NCBI GenBank assembly: GCA_963845185.1
Contig: CAWJRG010000009.1
Coordinates: 832,001 to 896,000, forward strand
Direction: 5' to 3'
DNA: 64,000 nt
DNA from: an uncultured bacterium
GTDB lineage: Bacteria; Oederibacteriota; PGYV01; CAWJRG01
In this document: positions 4,406-18,405 of the stretch, piece after piece
Layout of the letters: each line of letters starts with the position of its first letter
How positions within the stretch are numbered: the first letter of the stretch is position 1
The notes under the pieces: generated by a model
Told to the model about the DNA's origin: nothing
Seen by the model: the letters and a program-made list of their open reading frames with translations, nothing else
Databases searched by the model: none
Program-made: the position numbers and the translations under genes

Positions 4406-4972
4406 TTACTTCTTTTCCAGCAGCATTGAGAAGCTGAATACTGCCTTTGTTCCCGCAGACGCGCTAAAACCTGCTTTTACTGCCGATACTTTTTCCGCTT
4501 CAAAATCCTTTTTGGAAACATGCAGCAACGGCTCTATCACGAGCAATTTGCCGCCAAGCTTAAGCGCAAAATATATTTCGCTGAAAAATTTATCAGTATC
4601 AGGCACTTCATGCACCATGTAAAAAGCGAGCGCTGCGTCGAGACCCGGCACCAAGTTCAGGGTATCCTTTTCTGCTTTTATAAACGTGACGTTCTTGTTT
4701 TTGCAGTGTTTCTCCACTCTTTTTTTCGCCTTATCCAGCATTTCCTGCTGCAAGTCGACTGCGTATACTTTTCCAGAGGCTCCAGCTGCGTCTGACATCG
4801 CGGTAGTAAAAAAACCAGGTCCGCATCCGATATCTGCCACGGCCTTGCCTTCGCCTGCGAGGCTAACGAGTATTTTCTTCGGGTTATGTACAAGCCCGCG
4901 AAAAAACAAAAGCCCCCAGCTCCACGAAGCCGGGCATACGAATTTTTCATCCATTTTATCCTCCACATCCAT
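4406..4972 (-). CDS. Class I SAM-dependent methyltransferase
   Basis: VADIGCGPGFF motif I; VYAVDLQQEML. Confidence 0.85.
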   Translation of the reverse strand: MDVEDKMDEKFVCPASWSWGLLFFRGLVHNPKKILVSLAGEGKAVADIGCGPGFFTTAMSDAAGASGKVYAVDLQQEMLDKAKKRVEKHCKNKNVTFIKAEKDTLNLVPGLDAALAFYMVHEVPDTDKFFSEIYFALKLGGKLLVIEPLLHVSKKDFEAEKVSAVKAGFSASAGTKAVFSFSMLLEKK

Positions 4973-9878: not shown

Positions 9879-10874
9879 TTAATACGTCTTCGCAAAGCGG
9901 AAACCGGCATTGATGACCGCGCTATACGCGGAGTTGTTAGCGCGGTCGCCCACCTGCAGGAGGTACGCTACATAAAAGGCAGTGTTGAAGCTCCCGCCCC
10001 GCATCACACGGAGGGAGCCGCTTGCCGGCCCTGTGTAATTAATTTGTGCTGTAGTGGGATATGTCCCAAACCAGTCCCAGCACAATTCCCACGCATCACC
10101 CGACATATCATATATTCCAAGCGCGTTCGCGGCTAACGTGCCTACAGCCTGCGTACTAAAGCAATTTGAACTAAACCACGCTACAACCTCGGTTGCAGGT
10201 ATGTCGCTGACAGTATCTGTCGCGCCGCTGGCATAGTCATAAGGCGTCCAGTTTGTCCCGTCTATATAGCTTGCCGCGTACTGGTGTTCACCTTCTGTAG
10301 GAAGCCTGTATCCATCTGCGTTCCAGTTTACATACGGGTTATCATAACACCCTGCTGCCGTACAGGTAGTAGTGCCATACGCCCCGTTTACAGAACTATT
10401 AATAGCCGTGGTAAGCCCCGAGTCTGAATAATACACAGGGGTCAACCCTGTTTCCCGGCTGAATGCATTACACCACACAATAGCGTCGCGCCAGTTGACA
10501 GTTGTTACCGGCTGATATTCCGCAGAGGTCGGCGCGGCACCCGCCGTCCCATTGGAACCCTCTGCGCCTGCATTTTGAAAAGTATATCCGTTGGCAACGG
10601 CCCATTGATATACTGTATACCATAAATAATACGGCACCTTATACTTGCCCATCTTAAAAGCAGATATTGTGTGGCTGAAACTATTTGTTCCGTCGGTCTG
10701 CGTAAATGTCCCTCCCGGAACCGATACAAGATCCGTATAAAAAGCAATAGGCGTTGGTGCTGGAACAGCAGGTGTCTGCGTTACTGCAGGCACGGCAGGT
10801 GAATGCAATTTTTTGCAGCTGGCTATAATTAATATTGCGACGAGAATCAATACCAGGATTAAAAATTTTTTCAT
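9879..10874 (-). CDS. Lipoprotein with FGE-sulfatase/SUMF1 (C-type lectin fold) domain
   Basis: Lipobox IASC; PVTTVNWRDAIVWCN, GYRLPTEGE, NALGIYDMSG..WELCWDW, RVMRGGS and GFRFA motifs. Confidence 0.9.
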   Translation of the reverse strand: MKKFLILVLILVAILIIASCKKLHSPAVPAVTQTPAVPAPTPIAFYTDLVSVPGGTFTQTDGTNSFSHTISAFKMGKYKVPYYLWYTVYQWAVANGYTFQNAGAEGSNGTAGAAPTSAEYQPVTTVNWRDAIVWCNAFSRETGLTPVYYSDSGLTTAINSSVNGAYGTTTCTAAGCYDNPYVNWNADGYRLPTEGEHQYAASYIDGTNWTPYDYASGATDTVSDIPATEVVAWFSSNCFSTQAVGTLAANALGIYDMSGDAWELCWDWFGTYPTTAQINYTGPASGSLRVMRGGSFNTAFYVAYLLQVGDRANNSAYSAVINAGFRFAKTY

Positions 10875-11458: not shown

Positions 11459-12439
11459 CTATTGCGACCACCAGACGTCGTTTAAATACCCTCCGCTGCC
11501 GTCGCCGCAAAGCACCCACATCTCGTTGTTAAACACAACACTTGTGTGTCCCGCCCTTGCGCTGAACGCAGCCGGGTTTGCCGCTTCCATCCAGTTTGCC
11601 CCGTCCGTGGAATACCAGACATCATTCATATAGCCTGTGTTTTCATCACCTCCAATCACCCACATTGCCCCGCTGTATACTATGCTTGATTGGTCTCCTC
11701 TCGGACCGAAAGCTGCCGTGCCTGTTACCTGTACCCAGGAAACTCCGTTACTTGAGCTCCACACGTCGCTTAAATAACTGCCGTCAAACCCGGCTATCAC
11801 CCATATTTTATTTTTATATACCACGCTGCTGTGGTTTTCTCTCCCGCTGAAAAGCGCACCTGATGTAGCCGGGATCCACGTAACCCCGTTGCCTGAATAC
11901 CAGACATCGTTTAAACGGCCTGCCGTCTCCGCGCCACCTATCACCCACATCTGATTGTTAAAAACTACGCTGCTGTGGCCCACCCTGCTCGGAAAATTTG
12001 CCGTGCCCGTGACCTGCGTCCATGTATTGCCATCGCCCGAGCTCCACACATCGTTGTATATTGTTAGGCCGCTTGAGCCGGCTATTACCCACATTGCGTT
12101 ATTGTATACCACGCTGGTATGTCCGTACCTTGCGCTGAATGACGGTGTTGCCGCCTGCTGCCAGCCAGCGCCGTTTTGTGAATACCATACGTCCTTTAAA
12201 TCGCCGGAAACCCCTGTCCCGGCAATGATCCAGACATCATTGTTGAATACCACGCTTGTATGCGCTGACCTTGCGGCAAAAGGCGAGCCGTTCAGCGCTT
12301 TTGCCCAAATTATACCCGATACGGGCGTGTTTGTAGCTGTTGCTGCAGGCGCAGGCGACGAGGGCGAGGATTTTTTCGAGCAGTTGGATATGATTACAAT
12401 TGCGAAGAGAACTAAAATTGGAATTAAATTTTTTTTCAT
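11459..12439 (-). CDS. Lipoprotein with kelch-like beta-propeller
   Basis: Lipobox ISNC; six repeats of FSAR.GHTSVV.NN.MWVIAG...NDVW.S.DG..W. Confidence 0.9.
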   Translation of the reverse strand: MKKNLIPILVLFAIVIISNCSKKSSPSSPAPAATATNTPVSGIIWAKALNGSPFAARSAHTSVVFNNDVWIIAGTGVSGDLKDVWYSQNGAGWQQAATPSFSARYGHTSVVYNNAMWVIAGSSGLTIYNDVWSSGDGNTWTQVTGTANFPSRVGHSSVVFNNQMWVIGGAETAGRLNDVWYSGNGVTWIPATSGALFSGRENHSSVVYKNKIWVIAGFDGSYLSDVWSSSNGVSWVQVTGTAAFGPRGDQSSIVYSGAMWVIGGDENTGYMNDVWYSTDGANWMEAANPAAFSARAGHTSVVFNNEMWVLCGDGSGGYLNDVWWSQ

Positions 12440-12578
12440 AACGCCTCCATTTTCAAATGATTCTCAATTACCGGTTGTAATTTAACTTCACCGAAAATTA
12501 AAAATATTTTGCCGTATTTTAATATAAAAACAGGTTTATGGACTGTCACTGACTTTAAGACAACGGCTCTACTTTTAA

Positions 12579-13022
12579 TTATAATCCATTATCCTGGCAG
12601 GCCACCCAGTGTGAATCTATGGCCGAGGTATTGCCGCTTACAGTTATTGTATGCGTGGATCCCAGTGTTACTGAAAAAGCGCACCAGTTGACATAATAGC
12701 CGTTTGTACCGTTTACATTTACATTGTATGAATCTGTAGCCGGTATGCCGATACTTACATCCGCTGAAGTGCCTGCTGTTATTGAACAGCTCTGCGAATA
12801 ACTGCTTGAATCCGAATTGCGCACTAATTGCACTGAAACAATAGTTTTTGTTGCGCCCGAATCGCTGTTGGTGATGTTGAACATAACATAATTCGGAGTC
12901 TGCGTTGGTATAGGCCCCGGCGATGTGGATGATTTTTTTGTACAACCGAGGTTAAGCATGTTTAAAACAATAAAACAACATCCAACAAAAAAGACTGCTG
13001 AAAATTTTTTGTGAGTAGACAT
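12579..13022 (-). CDS. Hypothetical lipoprotein; 3' exon of the intron-split gene (original ATG at 14918)
   Basis: Lipobox NLGC and KKSSTSP linker. This ORF's ATG (13022) lies inside intron domain VI; splicing gives MKKFSAV... Confidence 0.8.
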   Translation of the reverse strand: MSTHKKFSAVFFVGCCFIVLNMLNLGCTKKSSTSPGPIPTQTPNYVMFNITNSDSGATKTIVSVQLVRNSDSSSYSQSCSITAGTSADVSIGIPATDSYNVNVNGTNGYYVNWCAFSVTLGSTHTITVSGNTSAIDSHWVACQDNGL

Positions 13023-14914
13023 CTTTTATAACCTCCTTTGGTTACTTAATGCCCCTCTCAGAACCGAACGTGACCGTTTCGGTCATTCGGCTCCACGGGA
13101 ATACTTCCTAATACGATGACAGCGAATAGGTTAAATGATATATCCTGGGTTCCGGCAATGGGTTGTATCTTAGAAAGCGGCAAAACTGTTCCCAGTTGTA
13201 ACTTCTTTTCTGGCTTCGCCTGTTTATCCATTTATAGGCGAGCGCACGATTTCTCCAGTAGAATTTTGTTATTTGGGGCATATTACCGCTTATCCCGTAA
13301 TAATTGTAGTGGCCCGTTAACTTTCTTCCTAATGCCTGCCACCACTGTTTTAATTCCACAAGATTTCTTACGCTCTTTAGCCAGAAGTTCGTCGCCTTCA
13401 TCTTCTGTTTGAATTTTGTACTTGCCGTCCTTCGGCCTAATTTGAAGCCGCCCTTTCTGGTTTTGTCGCAGTAATGAGTAAACCCGAGGAAATCAAAGGT
13501 CGGAATTTTCCCGCCTGTATCTTTGGACTTATACCAGGCGTGGCGCCCGAATACGATTATTCTCGATTTATCTTTGGCGATTTTGAGGCCAAACTTATCA
13601 AGCCTCTGTCTTAACATTTCGCCAAACTCCTTTGCTTCGCTGTCATATTGGAACAGCACAACAAAGTCATCGGCATAACGTATCAGACTGGCGTATCCTT
13701 TGAGCTGTCTCTTGACATGCCTTTCGAACCACAGGTCTAATATGTAGTGTAGGTAGATGTTCGCCAGTAATGGGCTTAGTATTCCGCCCTGCGGCGTCCC
13801 TTTATCCGTTTCGATAAACTTACCTTCTTCCATAATCCCTGCATTTAATATCCTGCCGATTAACCTTATCAGGTTTGTATCGGCAATCCTTTGCGTAAGG
13901 CATTTCATTAGCCATTTGTGGTTTATGGTATCGAAAAACTTCTCAATGTCCATATCCACTACTGCGTTGACTGGCTTTGTCATTACTTCCTTATCCAGAA
14001 TTTTCAATGCCTGATGACAATTTCTGTCAGGCCTGAACCCGTAAGATACTTCGCTGAAGTCTACCTCAAAGATTGACTCAAGAATTTTCTTTACCCCCAT
14101 CTGGATTATCTTATCCTCGACGGCAGGTATTCCCAGCGGCCTCTTGTCTCCGTTTGTCTTGGGGATGTAGACGCGCCTTGTTGGTTGCGGTATGTATCTC
14201 CACGCCTTCATCCTATTGATTAAATCCTTGATATTTGCCTCTTTGTTGACTTCATATTCCTCTATCCTTACTCCGTCAATGCCCGGGGCTTTGTCCTGTT
14301 TTAACTCCCCAAAGCACTCCATTAGAAACTCCTCATTGAGCAGGTGTATCAGCGATGTAAATCTCAATTTTGGATTTTCCTTTGCCCGCATTGTTATGGT
14401 CATAAGTTTTGTTGCCATTCCGTCTCCACCTCTGTGTGTGGCGGTTGTCTCCCTTATGTCCATACGCATTCCCTCTATCCCCTTTCTCCATCTACTTTCG
14501 TAGACTTCATCGATACTATGGGATAGTCAGACTGCCGGAACATCTTTTGCGGCTCCTTATCTTTTAGGATTTGTCGCCGCATACTCTCGTTTTGAGGGTG
14601 TCCCGGCTCTCCCGAGTTCATATCTGCTCCTTGACATCTTGACACGGACTTAGACCCCGTCGGATTCCCACTCTCTCGCCTTTTTATGATTGTGGGACTG
14701 CTGCCTGCTCTTTTATGAAAAATGTCGGCCTCCGACACGTTGGCGATTTCGGGGCTCAATACCTTCACTTGCGTTGTATCCCGATGTCTCCCGCCTTCCA
14801 GCTTCATTTAGCTCGTTGCCTCACTATTTGTGGAATTTGGTATTGGGCTGGCGGCTGACCTTTGCCCAGGCTGGACTTTCACCAGCGCGAACCGATACGC
14901 TTTTCTCGGCGCAC
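13010..14914 (-). mobile_element. Group II intron (IIB-like ribozyme, class E-like IEP), apparently complete
   Basis: 5' end GTGCG at 14914; domain V GGAGCCGAATGACCGAAACGGTCACGTTCGGTTC at 13094-13061; domain VI with bulged A (ATGTCT-A-CTC); RT ORF within domain IV. Confidence 0.93.
13108..14418 (-). CDS. ltrA: Group II intron reverse transcriptase/maturase without endonuclease domain
   Basis: KAPGIDG, RPLGIP..EDKIIQ, SYGFRP, GTPQGGILSPLLANIYLH, RYADD, FDFLGF and X-domain GHYNYY. Probable start MATKL at 14418; the ORF track gives 14469. Confidence 0.95.
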   Translation of the reverse strand: MATKLMTITMRAKENPKLRFTSLIHLLNEEFLMECFGELKQDKAPGIDGVRIEEYEVNKEANIKDLINRMKAWRYIPQPTRRVYIPKTNGDKRPLGIPAVEDKIIQMGVKKILESIFEVDFSEVSYGFRPDRNCHQALKILDKEVMTKPVNAVVDMDIEKFFDTINHKWLMKCLTQRIADTNLIRLIGRILNAGIMEEGKFIETDKGTPQGGILSPLLANIYLHYILDLWFERHVKRQLKGYASLIRYADDFVVLFQYDSEAKEFGEMLRQRLDKFGLKIAKDKSRIIVFGRHAWYKSKDTGGKIPTFDFLGFTHYCDKTRKGGFKLGRRTASTKFKQKMKATNFWLKSVRNLVELKQWWQALGRKLTGHYNYYGISGNMPQITKFYWRNRALAYKWINRRSQKRSYNWEQFCRFLRYNPLPEPRIYHLTYSLSSY

Positions 14915-15049
14915 TCATAACCGCCTCCTGATTTTTATAACGTTATACACAATATATCAGATAATTATTATTTTTCAATGTGTTTTTGTTGCCCCTTTGG
15001 ATACGCGTTATACGGGAAACGGGATGCGGGAATTGGGAAACGTAAGAGT

Positions 15050-15188
15050 AACCCTAAATCCCCCTAACCCCCTTTATTAAAGGGGGCAAAAATAATACCG
15101 AAAAGCAAACCTCCCTATCCCCTCCTTGTTAATGGAGGAATAAGACAAATCCCCTTGCAGTAGAGACGACCCGGCGGGTCGTCTCTAC
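15050..15188. repeat. Cluster of REP-like elements (CCCCCTTTATTAAAGGGGG type and GTAG-family REP)
   Basis: gtagagacgacccg-g-cgggtcgtctctac at 15160-15188, with copies at 56871-56897 and 63040-63067. CCCC-hairpin type also at 41900-41990 and 46270-46300. Confidence 0.75.
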
Positions 15189-15208
15189 GTTAATCAAGCT
15201 GTAAAAAT

Positions 15209-15264: not shown

Positions 15265-16197
15265 TTACGCTTTGTTTGTGCATTCCTCTTTCATCTGCAA
15301 TTTTGCCCACTGCGCATCTACGTATTTTTGTATTTCATCGACTATGGGCTTGTTTGCCGGGATCAAAAGGTGTTTGAACCTGGACTGCATCTTGAAGAAT
15401 TCTTCAACCGGCAGTTTTGTCTGCGGCTTATAGGTTATCTTATACTTGCCGTTTTCGACCTCATAATGCGGCCACATGCACGTATCAGCGGCCATCTTCG
15501 CTATCTTTACTGTCTTTGACGTATCGTATCCCCAGCCCAAAACGCATGGCGAGTACATGTTCACGAATTTCGGCCCTGTTATTGAAAATGCCTTCTCGAA
15601 TTTCTTTGTCGAGTCAGGCCAGAAGCCTATAGAGGTCTGCGCCACGTACGGTATATTATGCGCTACCATTATTTCCGTAAGGTCCTTTGGAAACTGTATT
15701 TTTCCTACAACTACTTTGCCTACCGGCGCTGTTGTTGTCTGCGCTGCCCTGGGGGTAGCGGATGAGCGCTGCACGCCTGTGTTCATATACGCGTCGTTGT
15801 TATAGCACACGTAAAGCATGTCGTGCCCGCGCTCCATGGCGCCGGACAATGACTGTATGCCTATGTCGTATGTACCGCCGTCGCCGCCGAAAGCCACAAA
15901 CTTGATGGTCTTGTCTATCCTGCCCTGTTTCTTCAGGGACTGGTAAGCTCCCTCTATGCCCGAGCAGGTCGCAGCTGAGTTTTCAAACGCGTTGTGCATA
16001 AAAGGCACCTTCCACGCCGAAAACGGGAATATGGTGGAAGTGACTTCCATACATCCGGTTGCGTTTACCACGATGACAGGGTCCTTGCATGAAGAAAGCA
16101 CCTGTTTTATCGCTATGGGAAATCCGCAGCCCGCGCATGCCCTGTGGCCGCCTGTAAACTTTGTTTCTACTGTTGCTGATTGTTTTGGTGTCGCCAT
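15265..16197 (-). CDS. porB: Pyruvate/2-oxoacid:ferredoxin oxidoreductase beta subunit
   Basis: GHRACAGC, GGDGGTYDIG TPP motif, YMNTGVQRS. Confidence 0.93.
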   Translation of the reverse strand: MATPKQSATVETKFTGGHRACAGCGFPIAIKQVLSSCKDPVIVVNATGCMEVTSTIFPFSAWKVPFMHNAFENSAATCSGIEGAYQSLKKQGRIDKTIKFVAFGGDGGTYDIGIQSLSGAMERGHDMLYVCYNNDAYMNTGVQRSSATPRAAQTTTAPVGKVVVGKIQFPKDLTEIMVAHNIPYVAQTSIGFWPDSTKKFEKAFSITGPKFVNMYSPCVLGWGYDTSKTVKIAKMAADTCMWPHYEVENGKYKITYKPQTKLPVEEFFKMQSRFKHLLIPANKPIVDEIQKYVDAQWAKLQMKEECTNKA

Positions 16198-16210
16198 GTT
16201 TTTGCCTCCT

Positions 16211-17395
16211 CTACTCTTTCAAGCCGATATACTGGACTAGTTCCGGCTGTTTTTTGCCTGCGGCAACGTCTTTCAGGTTCCTGTAGACATTCTTGATGTC
16301 CTCTATGAATATTTCCCTGCCGCCAAGTCCGTATATATAGCTTGCTAAAGGTATTTTTGACCCTGCATCAAACAGGCCTGCCTTGATTTCTGTGGAAAGC
16401 GGGCCTGCCTGGTTTGACAGGCTCTCTGCCCTGTCAAGCACTGCGACTGCCTTTGCCTTTGAAATCGCCGCGGCTATTTCCTCAGCAGGAAACGGCCTGA
16501 ATGCTCTGACTCTCACGAGCCCTGCTTTTACGCCTTCGTTCCTCAGCTCCTCTATCGCGGTTTTTGTTGTGCCTGCAGTGGAGCCTATGGATATTGTTAT
16601 ATAATCCGCGTCATCTGTCCTGTATTTCTCTATCAAACCGTATTCCTTGCCGAATGTCTTGCCGAACTCCCTGTCTATTTCTGTTATTACCCTTTTCGCG
16701 TTTTTCATGGCCTCGTGCTGGGCCTTTTTGAACTCAAGGTAATAGTCGGTCAAAACAAGCGAGCCGACCGTAATCGGGTGGTCGGTATCCATTAGGTTAT
16801 AAGCCGGGTTATACGGCCCTATGAACTTCTGGACCTCTGCGTCCGGGTACATATCCAGCCTTTCCATGCCGTGGCTGATTATAAAACCATCCGTGGTCAC
16901 GACAACAGGCGTCAGCACGTCCTTGTGCTCAGCTATCCTTATGGCCTGTATCATTGTATCGTATGCCTCCTGCGAGTTCTCGCAGTAAAGCTGTATCCAG
17001 CCTGAATCCCTCTCTGCCATTGTGTCCGAGTGGTCGCAGTGGATGTTTATCGGAGATGATAATGCCCTGTTTACGTCAGCGAGCACTATGGGCAGCCTTA
17101 ATCCTGCCACTATAAAAAGTATTTCATGCATGAGCGCTAGCCCCTGTGACGACGTGGCTGTCATTGTCCTTGCCCCTGCCGCGGCTGAGCCTGCGCACGC
17201 GCTCATGGCGCTGTGCTCTGACTCGACCGTAATCAGGTTTGTCTTTACCAGGCCGTCCGCCACAAACCCGGCAAAAATCTGCATTATTTCCGTGGCCGGC
17301 GTTATCGGGTAGGCAGCGCAGACATCAGGGTTTATCTGGCGCATGGCTTCTGCCATTGCCTCATTGCCTGTCCTTGCTACTATTGTTTTTTCCAT
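16211..17395 (-). CDS. porA: Pyruvate/2-oxoacid:ferredoxin oxidoreductase alpha subunit
   Basis: AAYPITP, VESEHSAMS, TATSSQGL, GLGGR. Confidence 0.93.
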   Translation of the reverse strand: MEKTIVARTGNEAMAEAMRQINPDVCAAYPITPATEIMQIFAGFVADGLVKTNLITVESEHSAMSACAGSAAAGARTMTATSSQGLALMHEILFIVAGLRLPIVLADVNRALSSPINIHCDHSDTMAERDSGWIQLYCENSQEAYDTMIQAIRIAEHKDVLTPVVVTTDGFIISHGMERLDMYPDAEVQKFIGPYNPAYNLMDTDHPITVGSLVLTDYYLEFKKAQHEAMKNAKRVITEIDREFGKTFGKEYGLIEKYRTDDADYITISIGSTAGTTKTAIEELRNEGVKAGLVRVRAFRPFPAEEIAAAISKAKAVAVLDRAESLSNQAGPLSTEIKAGLFDAGSKIPLASYIYGLGGREIFIEDIKNVYRNLKDVAAGKKQPELVQYIGLKE

Positions 17396-17410
17396 ATGTT
17401 TTTTCTCCTC

Positions 17411-17824
17411 CTACTTTATATTAAATTTTTCTTTAGCTTCTTTTAATCCTACAAATAATATCGAGGCCTTTTCGTCAAATTCCGGGTTGCCGTGTGCCGT
17501 AATTGCCTCTATTTTCGGGTTTGATGCCTGCAGGGCCTTGATGACCTTGCCGTTTACAGGGCATTCCTCGGGGCATATGCCGCAGCCTTTGCAGAAATCA
17601 TAGTCAAACTCAGCGCGCTCCTTGCCCTTTGCGCCGTCCTTTAACTTTATTGCGTTATCCGGGCAGTATGCCCAGCATGTCAGGCACTGTACGCAATTTT
17701 TCTGCTGCCAGATGGGTACATTGCTTCTCCAGTCGCCGGTATGAAAATATTCGGATGTGCCGCTTTCTACAACGCCGGCTATGCCTATATCCTTCCACGT
17801 CTTGATGTCGGGTTTTTTTGCCAT
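17411..17824 (-). CDS. porD: Oxidoreductase delta subunit (2x 4Fe-4S)
   Basis: TGDWR, CVQCLTCWAYCPD, CKGCGICPEECP. Confidence 0.9.
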   Translation of the reverse strand: MAKKPDIKTWKDIGIAGVVESGTSEYFHTGDWRSNVPIWQQKNCVQCLTCWAYCPDNAIKLKDGAKGKERAEFDYDFCKGCGICPEECPVNGKVIKALQASNPKIEAITAHGNPEFDEKASILFVGLKEAKEKFNIK

Positions 17825-18405
17825 TATTGTTTTACCTCCTCATATGCCGCCCTTATGGCTTTCAGGTTGCCTTCTATTACCTCGGGCTTGTTCCTGAATT
17901 TTTTTTCAAGTTTATGTTTTGTGTCCTCAATCAAAGCTTCCAGAGGCATCAAATTCGTCGCGCCTACCAGAGCCCCCATCATCGGGGTATTCGGTATAGG
18001 CCTGCCTATGTTTGTCTCAGCTATTTTTGATGCGTCCAGGGTAAAAAGCTTTTTCCCTTTCCATGCGATCCTTGCTTTTATCTCGTCTTTTTTGTATGGG
18101 GAGTTGATTATAAGCACCCCGGTTTCCTCGGACAGCCCTTTTGCAACATTTACCGAATCCATGAGCGTCTCGTCGAGCACGAGCACGACATCAGGATTTA
18201 ATACCGGTGAGTGGACCGATATCGGCTTTTCCGAAATCCTGTCGTATGACGCCACAGGCGCACCCATCCTTTCAGGGCCGTACTCAGGGAATGCTTGTAC
18301 GTATTTTCCCGCGCTGATTACTGCCTCTCCGAGAAGCAAAGCCGCTGTTTTAGCGCCCTGCCCTCCTCTTCCGTGCCATCTTATTTCCATCATATCTTTT
18401 GACAT
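17824..18405 (-). CDS. porC: Oxidoreductase gamma subunit
   Basis: EIRWHGRGGQGAKT, FPEYGPERMGAPV. Confidence 0.93.
   Translation of the reverse strand: MSKDMMEIRWHGRGGQGAKTAALLLGEAVISAGKYVQAFPEYGPERMGAPVASYDRISEKPISVHSPVLNPDVVLVLDETLMDSVNVAKGLSEETGVLIINSPYKKDEIKARIAWKGKKLFTLDASKIAETNIGRPIPNTPMMGALVGATNLMPLEALIEDTKHKLEKKFRNKPEVIEGNLKAIRAAYEEVKQ

Follow-up and report, generated by a model that had tools for sequence, protein, structure and literature searches.

A group II intron lineage that probably targets translation-initiation sites and carries a putative spare start in domain VI

A group II intron interrupts a lipoprotein gene within the window (the whole 64,000-nucleotide stretch of DNA that was analysed), and we consider it probable that this intron is an endonuclease-less, active retroelement of a widespread lineage, which homes to translation-initiation regions and carries a spare start in phase with the gene it enters. 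The broader proposal, to which we give an even chance, is that a widespread clade, found in MAGs labelled with more than 10 phyla, uses the initiation region (Shine-Dalgarno sequence [SD], start codon, and A at +4) as a generic homing site, and that a ribosome-binding site and start codon in domain VI are phased with the splice site such that the host gene would be expressed whether spliced or not.

Results

Identity and boundaries of the intron

The intron is confirmed as a group II intron with an intact reverse transcriptase (RT)/maturase by the following features.

14914-13010, minus strand: group II intron of 1905 nt that begins with GUGCG and ends with CUCACA, matching RF02005 and RF00029
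14879-14645, minus strand: ribozyme core, domains I-IV; Rfam RF02005 (group-II-D1D4-6), 100.4 bits against a gathering score of 49
14529, minus strand: candidate gamma nucleotide U in J2/3 (CAGUC-N-GACUA), partner of the last intron base
14469-13108, minus strand: intron RT/maturase ORF, 453 aa; TIGR04416, 366 bits against a cutoff of 300; Pfam RVT_1, 1e-40
13095-13009, minus strand: domains V/VI match; Rfam RF00029, 49.1 bits against a gathering score of 40
13093-13061, minus strand: domain V, from the RF00029 alignment

The conserved 5′ end GUGYG is present as GUGCG (14914–14910), and the 13 pairs of domain V are 100% paired in the intron alignment, with compensatory changes at 6 of them. 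The RT/maturase ORF is placed in domain IV, a feature of mobile group II introns; no HNH or other endonuclease domain was detected in the 453-aa intron protein, for which RVT_1 and TIGR04416 were the only matches.

Because the 3′ splice site lies inside a run of A residues, its position needed proof. The intron ends in ...ACA, so that the final base is A and not the usual pyrimidine, and its J2/3 partner is U instead of G. In the alignment, U in J2/3 goes with a 3′-terminal A (9 rows, 4 distinct introns) and G with a 3′-terminal C (12 rows), with zero exceptions, a pattern that reads as covariation of the γ–γ′ type. Furthermore, the ORFs downstream of all seven copies in this genome are in frame with the exon ATG only if the intron ends in ...CUCACA. 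The reading frame of these seven ORFs and the J2/3 covariation together place the last intron base at 13010 and the start of the 3′ exon at 13009, which upholds the exon boundary given in the original prediction; the motifs on which that prediction was built (exon ATG-A, GTGCG, AAGGAGG, ATG, and the hairpin arms) were also all found where it had placed them.

The interrupted gene and its products

On the minus strand, 14930–14915 reads CAGGAGGCGGTTATGA and is followed by GTGCG from 14914. The 5′ exon is GGAGGCGGTT-ATG-A, and the remainder of the lipoprotein gene lies on the other side of the intron. The elements of the host gene, with the intron segments proposed to recognize them, are as follows.

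14928-14924, minus strand: host gene Shine-Dalgarno GGAGG in the 5′ exon, 5-6 nt ahead of ATGA in 7/7 genome copies
14925-14921, minus strand: candidate IBS2, GGCGG, which shares the two final G of the SD and is complementary to intron 14748-14742
14920-14915, minus strand: IBS1, UUAUGA, made up of bases that include the start codon ATG (14918-14916) and the first base of codon 2
14748-14742, minus strand: candidate EBS2, AAUCGCC, a single-stranded segment 5′ of the EBS1 hairpin
14718-14713, minus strand: EBS1, UCAUAA, located in the loop at the tip of a hairpin in domain I and forming six base pairs with IBS1
13009-12579, minus strand: 3′ exon, rest of the host lipoprotein gene, with an in-frame ORF of 142 codons (15 and 18 in the other frames)

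The 5′ splice site falls directly after 14915. Splicing is predicted to join ...GGTTATGA to AAAAATTTTCAG, which would restore SD-AUG-AAA... and yield MKKFSAV...LNLGC; the unspliced reading would be MSTHKKFSAV.... An intron-less allele, which the original prediction had named as a check, was not found, as two DNA runs gave short, low-depth intron contigs and no joint across the intron; an intron-less paralogue was found, and it begins at the homologous Lys-Lys position. Host N-termini at intron sites are genuine on comparison with protein families, as Pfam profiles begin at residues 5–9 in the host proteins CoaE, sulfatase, and IS110 transposase. In relatives L074 and L044 the host genes encode cytoplasmic proteins (CoaE and one of the acetyl-CoA hydrolase/transferase family, AcetylCoA_hydro). 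An empty site was also looked for in the case of the IS110 host (locus L053), which is present as a single copy in that genome.

Distribution of copies within the genome

The genome holds seven copies of the intron, six near-identical and full-length and one ORF-less. The six full copies, at six different genes, differ at just 6 positions, which suggests that the intron is retromobile. All seven copies have GGAGG-N5-6-ATGA upstream and an in-frame signal-peptide ORF downstream, and this ORF is long in 7/7.

WWATGAA occurs at 4705 sites in the genome, and at 173 of these GGAGG lies no more than 14 nt upstream; all seven intron copies are at such sites, and chance placement is thereby excluded. 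A stricter pattern, GGAGGYG-N1-2-WWATGAA, has 14 sites, 6 of which are occupied; the remaining 8 open ORFs of at least 106 codons, most of them beginning with MKK. Two perfect GGCGGTTATGAA sites without an upstream GGA stand empty. The dinucleotide CG directly 3′ of GGAGG is found at 5 of 7 occupied sites vs. 28 of 445 intact gene starts.

Recognition of the start codon by EBS1

The pairing of EBS1 with IBS1 (UCAUAA/UUAUGA here) is maintained with other sequences elsewhere in the lineage: TCATTAA/TTAATGA in L037, CATAAGAGT/GCTCTTATG in L052, TGCCGCTCTG/CAGGGCGGCA in L049, TCCGTG/CACGGA in L050, and TAAAGA/TCTTTA in L033. EBS1 covaries in this way with the 5′ exon among relatives of quite different targets, which indicates that EBS1 reads the host start codon via base pairing, UCAU(AA) with (UU)AUGA. 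The assignment of EBS2/IBS2 is tentative: the candidate segment can be paired with exon positions −13 to −7 in L047, L050, L037, L009, and L033, not in L020, L025, and L027, and the pairing is weak or absent in several relatives. CCGCC occurs at just one conserved place, intron position 59, and was ruled out there as an anti-Shine-Dalgarno element; it is kept regardless of the exon and is therefore structural.

A preference for initiation sites could in principle arise after insertion, if the intron entered any (WW)AUGA followed by A and selection left copies at true gene starts. EBS1 spans just 4–7 nt, no segment complementary to the whole GGAGG (a CCUCC-like anti-Shine-Dalgarno element) was found in the intron, and L028 sits at an ATGA that is unconvincing as a gene start, all of which would suit such a scenario. 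However, the six copies are so nearly identical that there has been little time for purifying selection, 0 copies lie at intergenic or mid-gene sense sites despite the thousands of WWATGAA sites available, the 3′ CG and the 5–6 nt spacing are enriched beyond gene starts generally, and 6 of the 14 best-fitting sites are occupied. We regard indiscriminate insertion as scarcely credible, and targeting of the initiation region itself, with EBS1 reading the start codon, as the preferred reading.

Breadth of the lineage

The intron proteins of relatives are about 50–84% identical, and the titles of their records name more than 10 phyla. The original prediction held that other copies would be flanked by an SD, a spacer, and ATGA; beyond the seven copies in this genome, start-type junctions were found at 6 of 6 sites in an Aerophobetes genome (G061) and at 29 of 45 scorable 5′ junctions among relatives, which follow [ATG]TG+N, a start codon with one further base. 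Of the 16 relatives having enough flank, 14 have a long in-frame ORF. Among the 29, L009 (TTGA) is doubtful as a start-type member and more likely belongs to a group targeting GGGGTCAG, and two others are poor gene starts: L028, without an SD and with a 7-codon ORF, and L036, with a 27-codon ORF.

A wider RF02005 search found such introns in 24 of 99 genomes of the phylum; 26 new loci were scanned, the 5′ junction was found in 16, and 2 of these are start-type. Many stretches recovered by a metagenome 14-mer scan are without a recognisable 5′ end of the intron family, and an nhmmer scan gave 51 matches in total over all collected loci, those from the 14-mer scan being a part of these loci.

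A Shine-Dalgarno sequence and AUG in domain VI

Domain VI contains a second SD-AUG motif, arranged as follows.

13057-13010, minus strand: domain VI, with the bulged branch-point A at 13016; RF00029
13045-13040 and 13033-13028, minus strand: distal hairpin of domain VI, GUAACC/GGUUAU, which shows the SD in its loop and 3′ arm
13038-13032, minus strand: intron-borne Shine-Dalgarno AAGGAGG, followed by a 9-nt spacer (13031-13023)
13022-13020, minus strand: AUG carried by the intron, 13 nt ahead of the 3′ splice site; its partner in the domain VI helix is CAU

The domain VI fold has an energy of −15.5 kcal/mol (z = −5.1), and its helix is invariant across 16 introns. Five of the six pairs in the SD hairpin are changed on both sides, with 89% of cells paired (compensatory examples are TAACC/GGTTA, CAATC/GATTG, and TTTAC/GTAAA). 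Domain VI is readable in 15 of the 29 start-type relatives, and in 15 of 15 an SD core lies 5–9 nt ahead of an in-register AUG, as the original prediction of a conserved, in-frame SD and AUG had anticipated. All start-type introns have 13 or 16 nt between the AUG and the 3′ splice site; the 13-nt distance (3n+1) is the phase of the exon ATG plus one base. The ORF-less copy has GUG in place of this AUG, a change that preserves both a start codon and the pairing. The motif is retained across intron proteins that are just 50% identical, and also in L024, L025, and L031, whose domain VI is of a second and far longer type.

Relatives with other targets differ in this region. Non-start L010, L033, L038, L049, and L147 are without the SD-AUG motif, and in non-start L039 and L050 the AUG is kept and the SD is degraded. 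On a quick tree, target type and the domain VI SD give 3–4 phylogenetically independent contrasts, all in the same direction (sign test, p = 0.25). The AUG may be conserved for the helix alone, since non-start L039, L050, and L034 keep it in register. Structure and spacing also count against initiation in domain VI: folding of the intron places the AUG and two of the G residues of the SD in base pairs, so that binding of the 30S subunit would be hindered, and a spacing of 9 nt between SD and AUG is among the longer ones in this genome (26 of 445 gene starts).

The motif might instead serve the intron, by recruiting ribosomes that protect or fold its RNA or by timing the branching reaction, with translation of the 3′ exon incidental. 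The location of the AUG inside an invariant helix, the conserved and covarying hairpin around the SD, and the AUG kept by non-start L039 and L050 are all compatible with such a role, and association of the Ll.LtrB group II intron with ribosomes, which protects the RNA, has been reported (PMC3851717; mentioned in the available part of PMC12584367). A role of this kind would require neither a particular phase nor a particular target, yet the AUG is always at a distance from the splice site that gives the sole phase matching the exon ATG plus one base, and strong SD cores are found in every readable start-type intron and in none of the clearly retargeted relatives. We consider a purely intron-serving function unlikely, although it deserves more weight than the other alternatives. 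Alternatively, the motif could have no function in translation today and be a passive remnant or imitation of the target, either an SD-AUG captured at the origin of the lineage or a decoy for EBS1. In this intron the exon sequence GGAGGCGGUUAUGA does resemble domain VI GGAGGUUAUAAAAGAUG; on the other hand, the motif has persisted at 50% protein identity and in the longer domain VI type, the surrounding hairpin has undergone compensatory change, the motif has decayed in retargeted relatives, and the AUGU of domain VI is a poor partner for the UCAU of EBS1. A passive origin of this sort strikes us as very unlikely. The three sequence-level checks named with the original prediction all came out as it had foreseen, and its interpretation is supported; domain VI may, on comparative grounds, also replace the initiation site that insertion disrupts.

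Discussion

Proposed mechanism

In the mechanism that we favour, the EBS1 loop UCAUAA base-pairs with the start codon and the bases adjacent to it (UUAUGA), a neighbouring CGCC segment would probably pair with GGCG overlapping the 3′ end of the SD, and the A with which the 3′ exon begins may find a partner in the base 5′ of EBS1; pairing with the start region would direct insertion between bases 1 and 2 of codon 2. The anatomy of the intron, the spread of its copies, the EBS1/IBS1 pairing, and the conservation are results of the analysis, and recognition of the full SD is a putative part of the mechanism. Domain VI would supply its own GGAGG and AUG upstream of the 3′ splice site, and as this AUG is in phase with the exon AUG plus one base, unspliced transcripts could still yield the host protein, with M-S-T-H/R replacing the first Met. 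We infer from the comparison of relatives that ribosomes would initiate in domain VI on unspliced RNA, which would make insertion nearly silent; a built-in, in-phase start thus appears to neutralise the damage of insertion, and the element would be able to spread over many gene starts.

Comparison with known group II introns

Neither this lineage nor a start site within domain VI was found described in a full-text literature search. The sole precedent found is the proteobacterial IIB1 lineage, two of whose four defining features are absent here. According to the available part of one description (PMC12584367), members of that lineage (Avi.groEL and EcKTE56.groEL) are inserted in or beside initiation and termination codons, the groEL members recreate the signal that they split (UAA to UAG), and the lineage is characterized as follows: domain I carries at its base, close to the 5′ end, a large insertion of 300–700 nt; the RT is of CL1 type and bears a C-terminal endonuclease domain; and the hosts are proteobacterial and of the housekeeping kind. 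The present intron is similar in its insertion after ATG+A, in 7/7 copies, with no stop-codon members seen. It differs in having no 300–700 nt insertion (the RF02005 match begins 35 nt from the 5′ end of an intron of 1905 nt in total), in the endonuclease domain, which was not detected in its protein, and in its hosts, which span many phyla and many kinds of genes. Measured against the IIB1 lineage as that citing description portrays it, the SD and AUG in domain VI also set this intron apart.

Group IIC introns target generic signals, namely terminator hairpins and attC sites. They read a DNA hairpin together with a very short IBS1 and sit outside coding frames. According to the available part of one report, outward-facing promoters in IIC-attC introns allow downstream cassettes to be expressed again (PMC3001079). 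The present intron resembles the IIC and IIC-attC introns in that a generic genetic signal is the target and the element brings a spare expression signal; unlike IIC introns it uses ordinary EBS1/IBS1 pairing with the start codon, and unlike in IIC-attC introns the spare signal is an in-phase translational start and not a promoter.

The class E introns Co.ca.I1, Fa.pr.I2, Mo.th.I1, and C.be.I3 encode endonuclease-less proteins. In reference alignments (PMC7306698) these four have a similar domain V and domain VI base (GAGCCG...CGGTTCTGTGAGGGG...GTCTACTCGAC) and a similar 5′-end architecture (GTGCGCC...GGTG.AA.TCC...AAGG..AGC), and they differ in their short domain VI and in having no AUG at −13. 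None of the reference alignments of that source contains the string ATGTCTACTC or either of the 5′ motifs AGCCACCAG and AGGTTAGC. The 3′ end of the present intron resembles this class E subset and also CL1, whose introns likewise end in CTACTCGAC, so that the resemblance to class E does not fix the class; the PDB relatives of the intron protein score alike across classes.

Significance

Bacterial group II introns are thought to persist by avoiding genes. This lineage does the reverse, aiming at a short signal that is common to nearly all bacterial genes. In the available part of a 2015 review, the target specificities listed number just three, namely homing sites, terminators, and attC sites (PMC4424553). 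If the proposal is true, initiation regions would join specific homing sites, terminators, and attC sites as a fourth class of target, the intron would be the first retroelement known to equip the gene that it splits with a spare start of translation, and one stretch of RNA would be contested by the ribosome and the branch-point helix. Confirmation would reveal a new route by which a retroelement can cut its cost and spread, with 6 of the 14 best-fitting sites already taken; since ribosome binding would overlap the branch-site helix, splicing and translation could be studied on one RNA, and vectors could be conceived that target genes at their starts and leave them active. Gene callers will give such genes false MSTH or MSTR N-termini and overlook the intron.

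Intron Anatomy and Splice Sites

The intron (window 14914–13010, minus strand, 1905 nt) and its 5′ exon comprise the following features:

14930–14915, minus: 5′ exon, CAGGAGGCGGTT-ATG-A, followed by GTGCG
14879–14645, minus: group II ribozyme core (Rfam RF02005, group-II-D1D4-6; 100.4 bits, gathering score 49)
14469–13108, minus: RT/maturase ORF, 453 aa (TIGR04416, NCBIfam group II RT/maturase, 366 bits, cutoff 300; Pfam RVT_1)
13095–13009, minus: domains V/VI (Rfam RF00029; 49.1 bits, gathering score 40)
13038–13032, minus: AAGGAGG in domain VI, with a 9-nt spacer to the ATG at 13022–13020

The Shine-Dalgarno (SD) sequence, spacer and ATG that the original prediction had read in domain VI are all present in the sequence. 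Pfam and NCBIfam profiles detected no endonuclease domain in the 453-aa intron protein.

Because the intron's 3′ end is a run of A, the boundary needed proof, and two independent results, reading frame and the J2/3 base, place the last intron base at 13010. An ending of ...CUCACA is the only choice that puts all seven downstream ORFs of the copies in this genome in the exon-ATG frame (64 to 332 codons; the other two frames stop at 2–76 codons). The J2/3 base (CAGUC-N-GACUA, window 14529) is U in four distinct A-ending introns (the window's intron and its relatives L020, L021, and L022) and G in 12 introns ending in C; J2/3 and the last intron base may be read as the γ-γ′ pair of group II introns, a covariation that would amount to a single evolutionary event, not many. 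Since the 3′ end is at 13010, splicing should join 14915 to 13009, and the predicted spliced start, ATG AAA AAA TTT TCA GCA, would encode MKKFSAV...LNLGC, a lipoprotein signal peptide resembling those of neighboring genes. Upstream of the host-gene start (window 15170–15200 and 15020–15140, minus strand), a G+C-rich inverted repeat, gagacgacccgccgggtcgtctc, which resembles a terminator for the pyruvate:ferredoxin oxidoreductase operon (15265–18405), is followed by short G-rich and C-rich direct repeats.

Copies in the Genome and Choice of Site

The genome holds six full intron copies and one ORF-less copy, with 5′ flanks, each followed by GTGCG, of tattGGAGGCAATTATGA, atcaGGAGGCGGTTATGA, gaggGAGGCGGATTATGA, ttaaGGAGGCGGAATATGA, aaacGGAGGTGGTTATGA, caagGGAGGCGGTTATGA, and caagGGAGGCGTAAATGA. 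The N-terminus encoded by each of the seven 3′ exons is that of a signal peptide or lipoprotein. Only six positions vary among the full copies (four homopolymer indels and two substitutions), and this near-identity indicates recent spread. An intron-less paralogue (window 9879–10874), 58% identical to the host of one copy (L005), starts with M-K-K at exactly the position predicted for the spliced product.

The location of the copies at gene starts is real and far beyond chance. WWATGAA occurs 4705 times in the genome (42% G+C), with GGAGG at most 14 nt upstream in only 173 cases, and 6 of the 14 GGAGGYG-N1-2-WWATGAA sites carry the intron; the eight empty ones precede ORFs of at least 106 codons, mostly beginning MKK. 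Two perfect GGCGGTTATGAA sites that lack a preceding GGA are unoccupied. A spacing of 5–6 nt is found at 176 of 445 intact GGAGG-Nx-ATGA gene starts vs. all seven occupied sites, and CG follows GGAGG at 28/445 vs. 5/7. These preferences for spacing, CG, and GGA show that the element reads more than ATGA. The start of the next downstream gene (a Kelch-repeat lipoprotein, 11459–12439), GGAGGCGTTATGAAAAAAAA at 12436–12448 (minus strand), is a near-perfect but empty look-alike of the target; its spacer is shorter by one base than those of occupied sites.

The ORF-less copy (locus L007/L008, C1:269108–269894 of this genome, 787 nt), inserted at GGAGGCGTAAATGA before a 245-codon signal-peptide ORF, is 89% identical to a full copy over the 5′ 646 nt and 98% over the 3′ 134 nt, and presumably relies on RT supplied by the full copies. 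Its domain VI has GUG in place of AUG, a change that preserves the base pair as well as a start codon; the 245-codon host ORF is in phase. A 189-nt contig from freshwater-sediment DNA (run X1, record 5) matches window 14897–14929; it joins the first 18 intron bases to AGGAGGCGGTTATGA and a flank unlike any of the genome's seven sites, and so represents one more such site, the eighth, from a related population.

Recognition of the Start Codon

A hairpin of domain I has in its terminal loop UCAUAA (14718–14713), the complement of UUAUGA, the final six bases of the exon, and the loop sequence covaries with the exon among relatives with quite different targets:

Loop and exon sequences in relatives of the intron (locus; loop, EBS1; exon, IBS1)
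L037; TCATTAA; TTAATGA
L052; CATAAGAGT; GCTCTTATG
L049; TGCCGCTCTG; CAGGGCGGCA
L050; TCCGTG; CACGGA
L033; TAAAGA; TCTTTA

This identifies the loop as EBS1; recognition of the start codon is by ordinary EBS1-IBS1 pairing, with UCAU as its core. A second UCAUAA lies in the next domain I hairpin loop (14684–14689, minus strand); the ORF-less copy also has one, and the closest relatives L020 and L022 have none. Just upstream of the EBS1 hairpin, the single-stranded segment AAUCGCC (14748–14742) is a candidate EBS2: its potential partner, GGCGG(UU), includes the final two G of the exon SD, and such pairing is consistent with the CG enrichment and with some relatives, though not with L020, L025, or L027. 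No segment complementary to the whole GGAGG was found in the intron sequence. One possibility is that the upstream GGA is sensed through contacts of the intron protein; another is that the preference arises from selection after insertion. For EcI5, distal 5′-exon positions are described as important in a passage of PMC8643678.

Start-Type Insertion among Relatives

A search with the intron protein, one genome per species, yielded 54 loci, and a 14-mer scan of metagenome contigs added more. The closest relatives (80–82% identical) come from MAGs labeled Omnitrophota or Omnitrophica and one labeled Proteobacteria; further labels, all fallible, are Aerophobetes, Aminicenantes, Syntrophaceae, Clostridia, Brocadia, Actinomycetota, Dehalococcoidia, Chloroflexi, Verrucomicrobiota, Nitrospirae, and an ANME-1 archaeon. 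Use of an HMM built on intron bases 1–75 located 45 5′ junctions, 29 of which follow ATG, GTG, or TTG plus one base (start-type; 3/64 expected by chance), although one of the 29, L009, probably belongs to a GGGGTCAG-targeting group instead. A purine-rich SD-like core lies 4–13 nt upstream in 23 of the 25 start-type junctions with enough flank. The SD-N-ATGA flanks expected at other copies and homologues were borne out at all seven local copies and at 29 of the 45 junctions of relatives. In one Aerophobetes genome, [AG]TGA precedes all six RF02005 copies.

An in-phase ORF of at least 88 codons follows 14 of the 16 start-type introns with at least 250 nt of 3′ flank (exceptions: L028, 7 codons; L036, 27 codons) and is short in all eight non-start relatives. 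Pfam profiles start at residues 5–9 of the unspliced reading in the dephospho-CoA kinase, sulfatase, and IS110 transposase hosts; other hosts encode an aldo/keto reductase, a thioesterase, an acetyl-CoA hydrolase/transferase, and a DsbC-like protein. Judged by sequence, these are genuine gene starts. A quick maximum-likelihood tree built from 47 intron proteins has start-type introns throughout the clade of at least 50% identity, and non-start lines branch inside it.

A Candidate Start Site in Domain VI

SD and AUG are kept in all 15 start-type relatives with readable domain VI, as predicted, with the AUG 13 nt from the 3′ splice site except in L074 (16 nt) and L031 (AUGs at both 16 and 13 nt). 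Its phase is always 3n+1, equal to the exon's ATG plus one base, and the predicted frame with the 3′ exon agrees with the long ORFs of all seven local copies and of 14 of the 16 relatives. The SD core, 5–9 nt before the AUG, is GGAGG in 10 of the 15, AGGAG in 3, GAGG in 1, and AGGA in 1; a second type of domain VI, ~70 nt longer (L024, L025, and L031), carries the same terminal module, AAAGGAGG-N-AUG. From these features we infer, with good support, that unspliced RNA could be translated from the domain VI start. A search for RNA runs containing this sequence found none.

In an alignment of 16 introns, the distal hairpin presenting the SD has compensatory changes at 5/6 pairs (89% of cells paired), with arms such as TAACC/GGTTA, CAATC/GATTG, and TTTAC/GTAAA; GGAGG itself is unchanged, and the AUG-CAU pairing in the domain VI helix is invariant. 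The fold is stable (−15.5 kcal/mol, z = −5.1), and in the folded intron the AUG and half of the SD are base-paired. The AUG could be conserved for the helix alone. Non-start introns L010, L033, L038, L049, and L147 lack both AUG and SD at the equivalent place, L033 and L038 retaining the helix with other bases; L039 and L050 retain the AUG, with the SD decayed to AGGAAAC, 10–11 nt away, and L034 has an AUG at −16 with GGUG. Target type and domain VI SD provide only 3–4 phylogenetically independent contrasts, all in one direction but too few for a sign test to become significant (p = 0.25).

Proposed Mechanism

The RNP would locate SD-spacer-AUGA|A via EBS1, probably EBS2, and the base adjoining EBS1, and insert behind the first base of codon 2. 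EBS-IBS pairing in the precursor would hide the host's own start, which splicing would bring back; an exon AUG used on unspliced RNA would be read 37 codons into domain I, so some sequestering of the exon start is expected. Should splicing fail, initiation in domain VI could let ribosomes produce the host protein with its first Met replaced by M-S-T-H (M-S-T-R in most relatives), an extension that would keep the short, positively charged N-region of signal peptides. If functional, the domain VI start most likely acts on unfolded or misfolded RNA, the very case that calls for a spare start. Given the start-site location, no ribosome would arrive from upstream to unfold the ribozyme.

Five start-type copies (L023, L026, L088, L150, and L197) begin GCGUG, GUAUG, GGGCG, GAGCG, or AUGUG, not GUGYG, and may, if these are not sequencing errors, be natural splicing-impaired copies; in L026 the in-phase host ORF is still open after 96 codons, where the contig ends, a state that would be compatible with initiation in domain VI.

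Comparison with Known Introns

The nearest precedent is the monophyletic IIB1 family of Michel et al. (2007), whose introns, according to PMC12584367, contain an insertion of 300–700 nt close to the 5′ end and encode an RT of CL1 type that includes an endonuclease domain; its groEL members change UAA to UAG by insertion, and the way this lineage colonizes start/stop codons is there called unknown. The window's intron differs in two defining features, having no 5′ insertion and no detected endonuclease domain, and its lineage occupies other phyla and many kinds of gene. A passage of a 2015 review gives only three target specificities (PMC4424553), and full-text literature searches found no description of a ribosome-binding site in domain VI. 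The label "class E-like" may apply; the string ATGTCTACTC is absent from the class-sorted reference alignments supplied with PMC7306698, in which the 3′ end CTACTCGAC is common to CL1 and a subset of class E.

Other Targets in the RF02005 Family

The RF02005 family is wider than the start-site habit: within the window's phylum, 24 of the 99 genomes have such introns, and among 26 new loci scanned, 5′ junctions were found in 16, of which 2 are start-type. The related non-start introns L201, L202, L033, and L009 lie 6–15 nt downstream of GGGGTCA(G/A)(A/G), a different, repeated target, in which GUCAG pairs with UUGAC, the candidate EBS2 in L009 and L033. L046, a start-type intron on a Nitrospirae MAG contig, seems to contain another group II intron, which differs from it and encodes a separate RT; the apparent insertion point is in the RT ORF of the outer intron, close to the YADD region, and the pair would make a twintron. 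Other RF02005-type introns in the phylum (genome G099 and others; L228–L234, L243, and L244) give up to 15 matches per genome. The two G099 copies inspected follow a common TTGTCCACGA(C/T)G motif, as do copies in several further genomes; this constitutes a second multi-copy homing habit within the ribozyme family.
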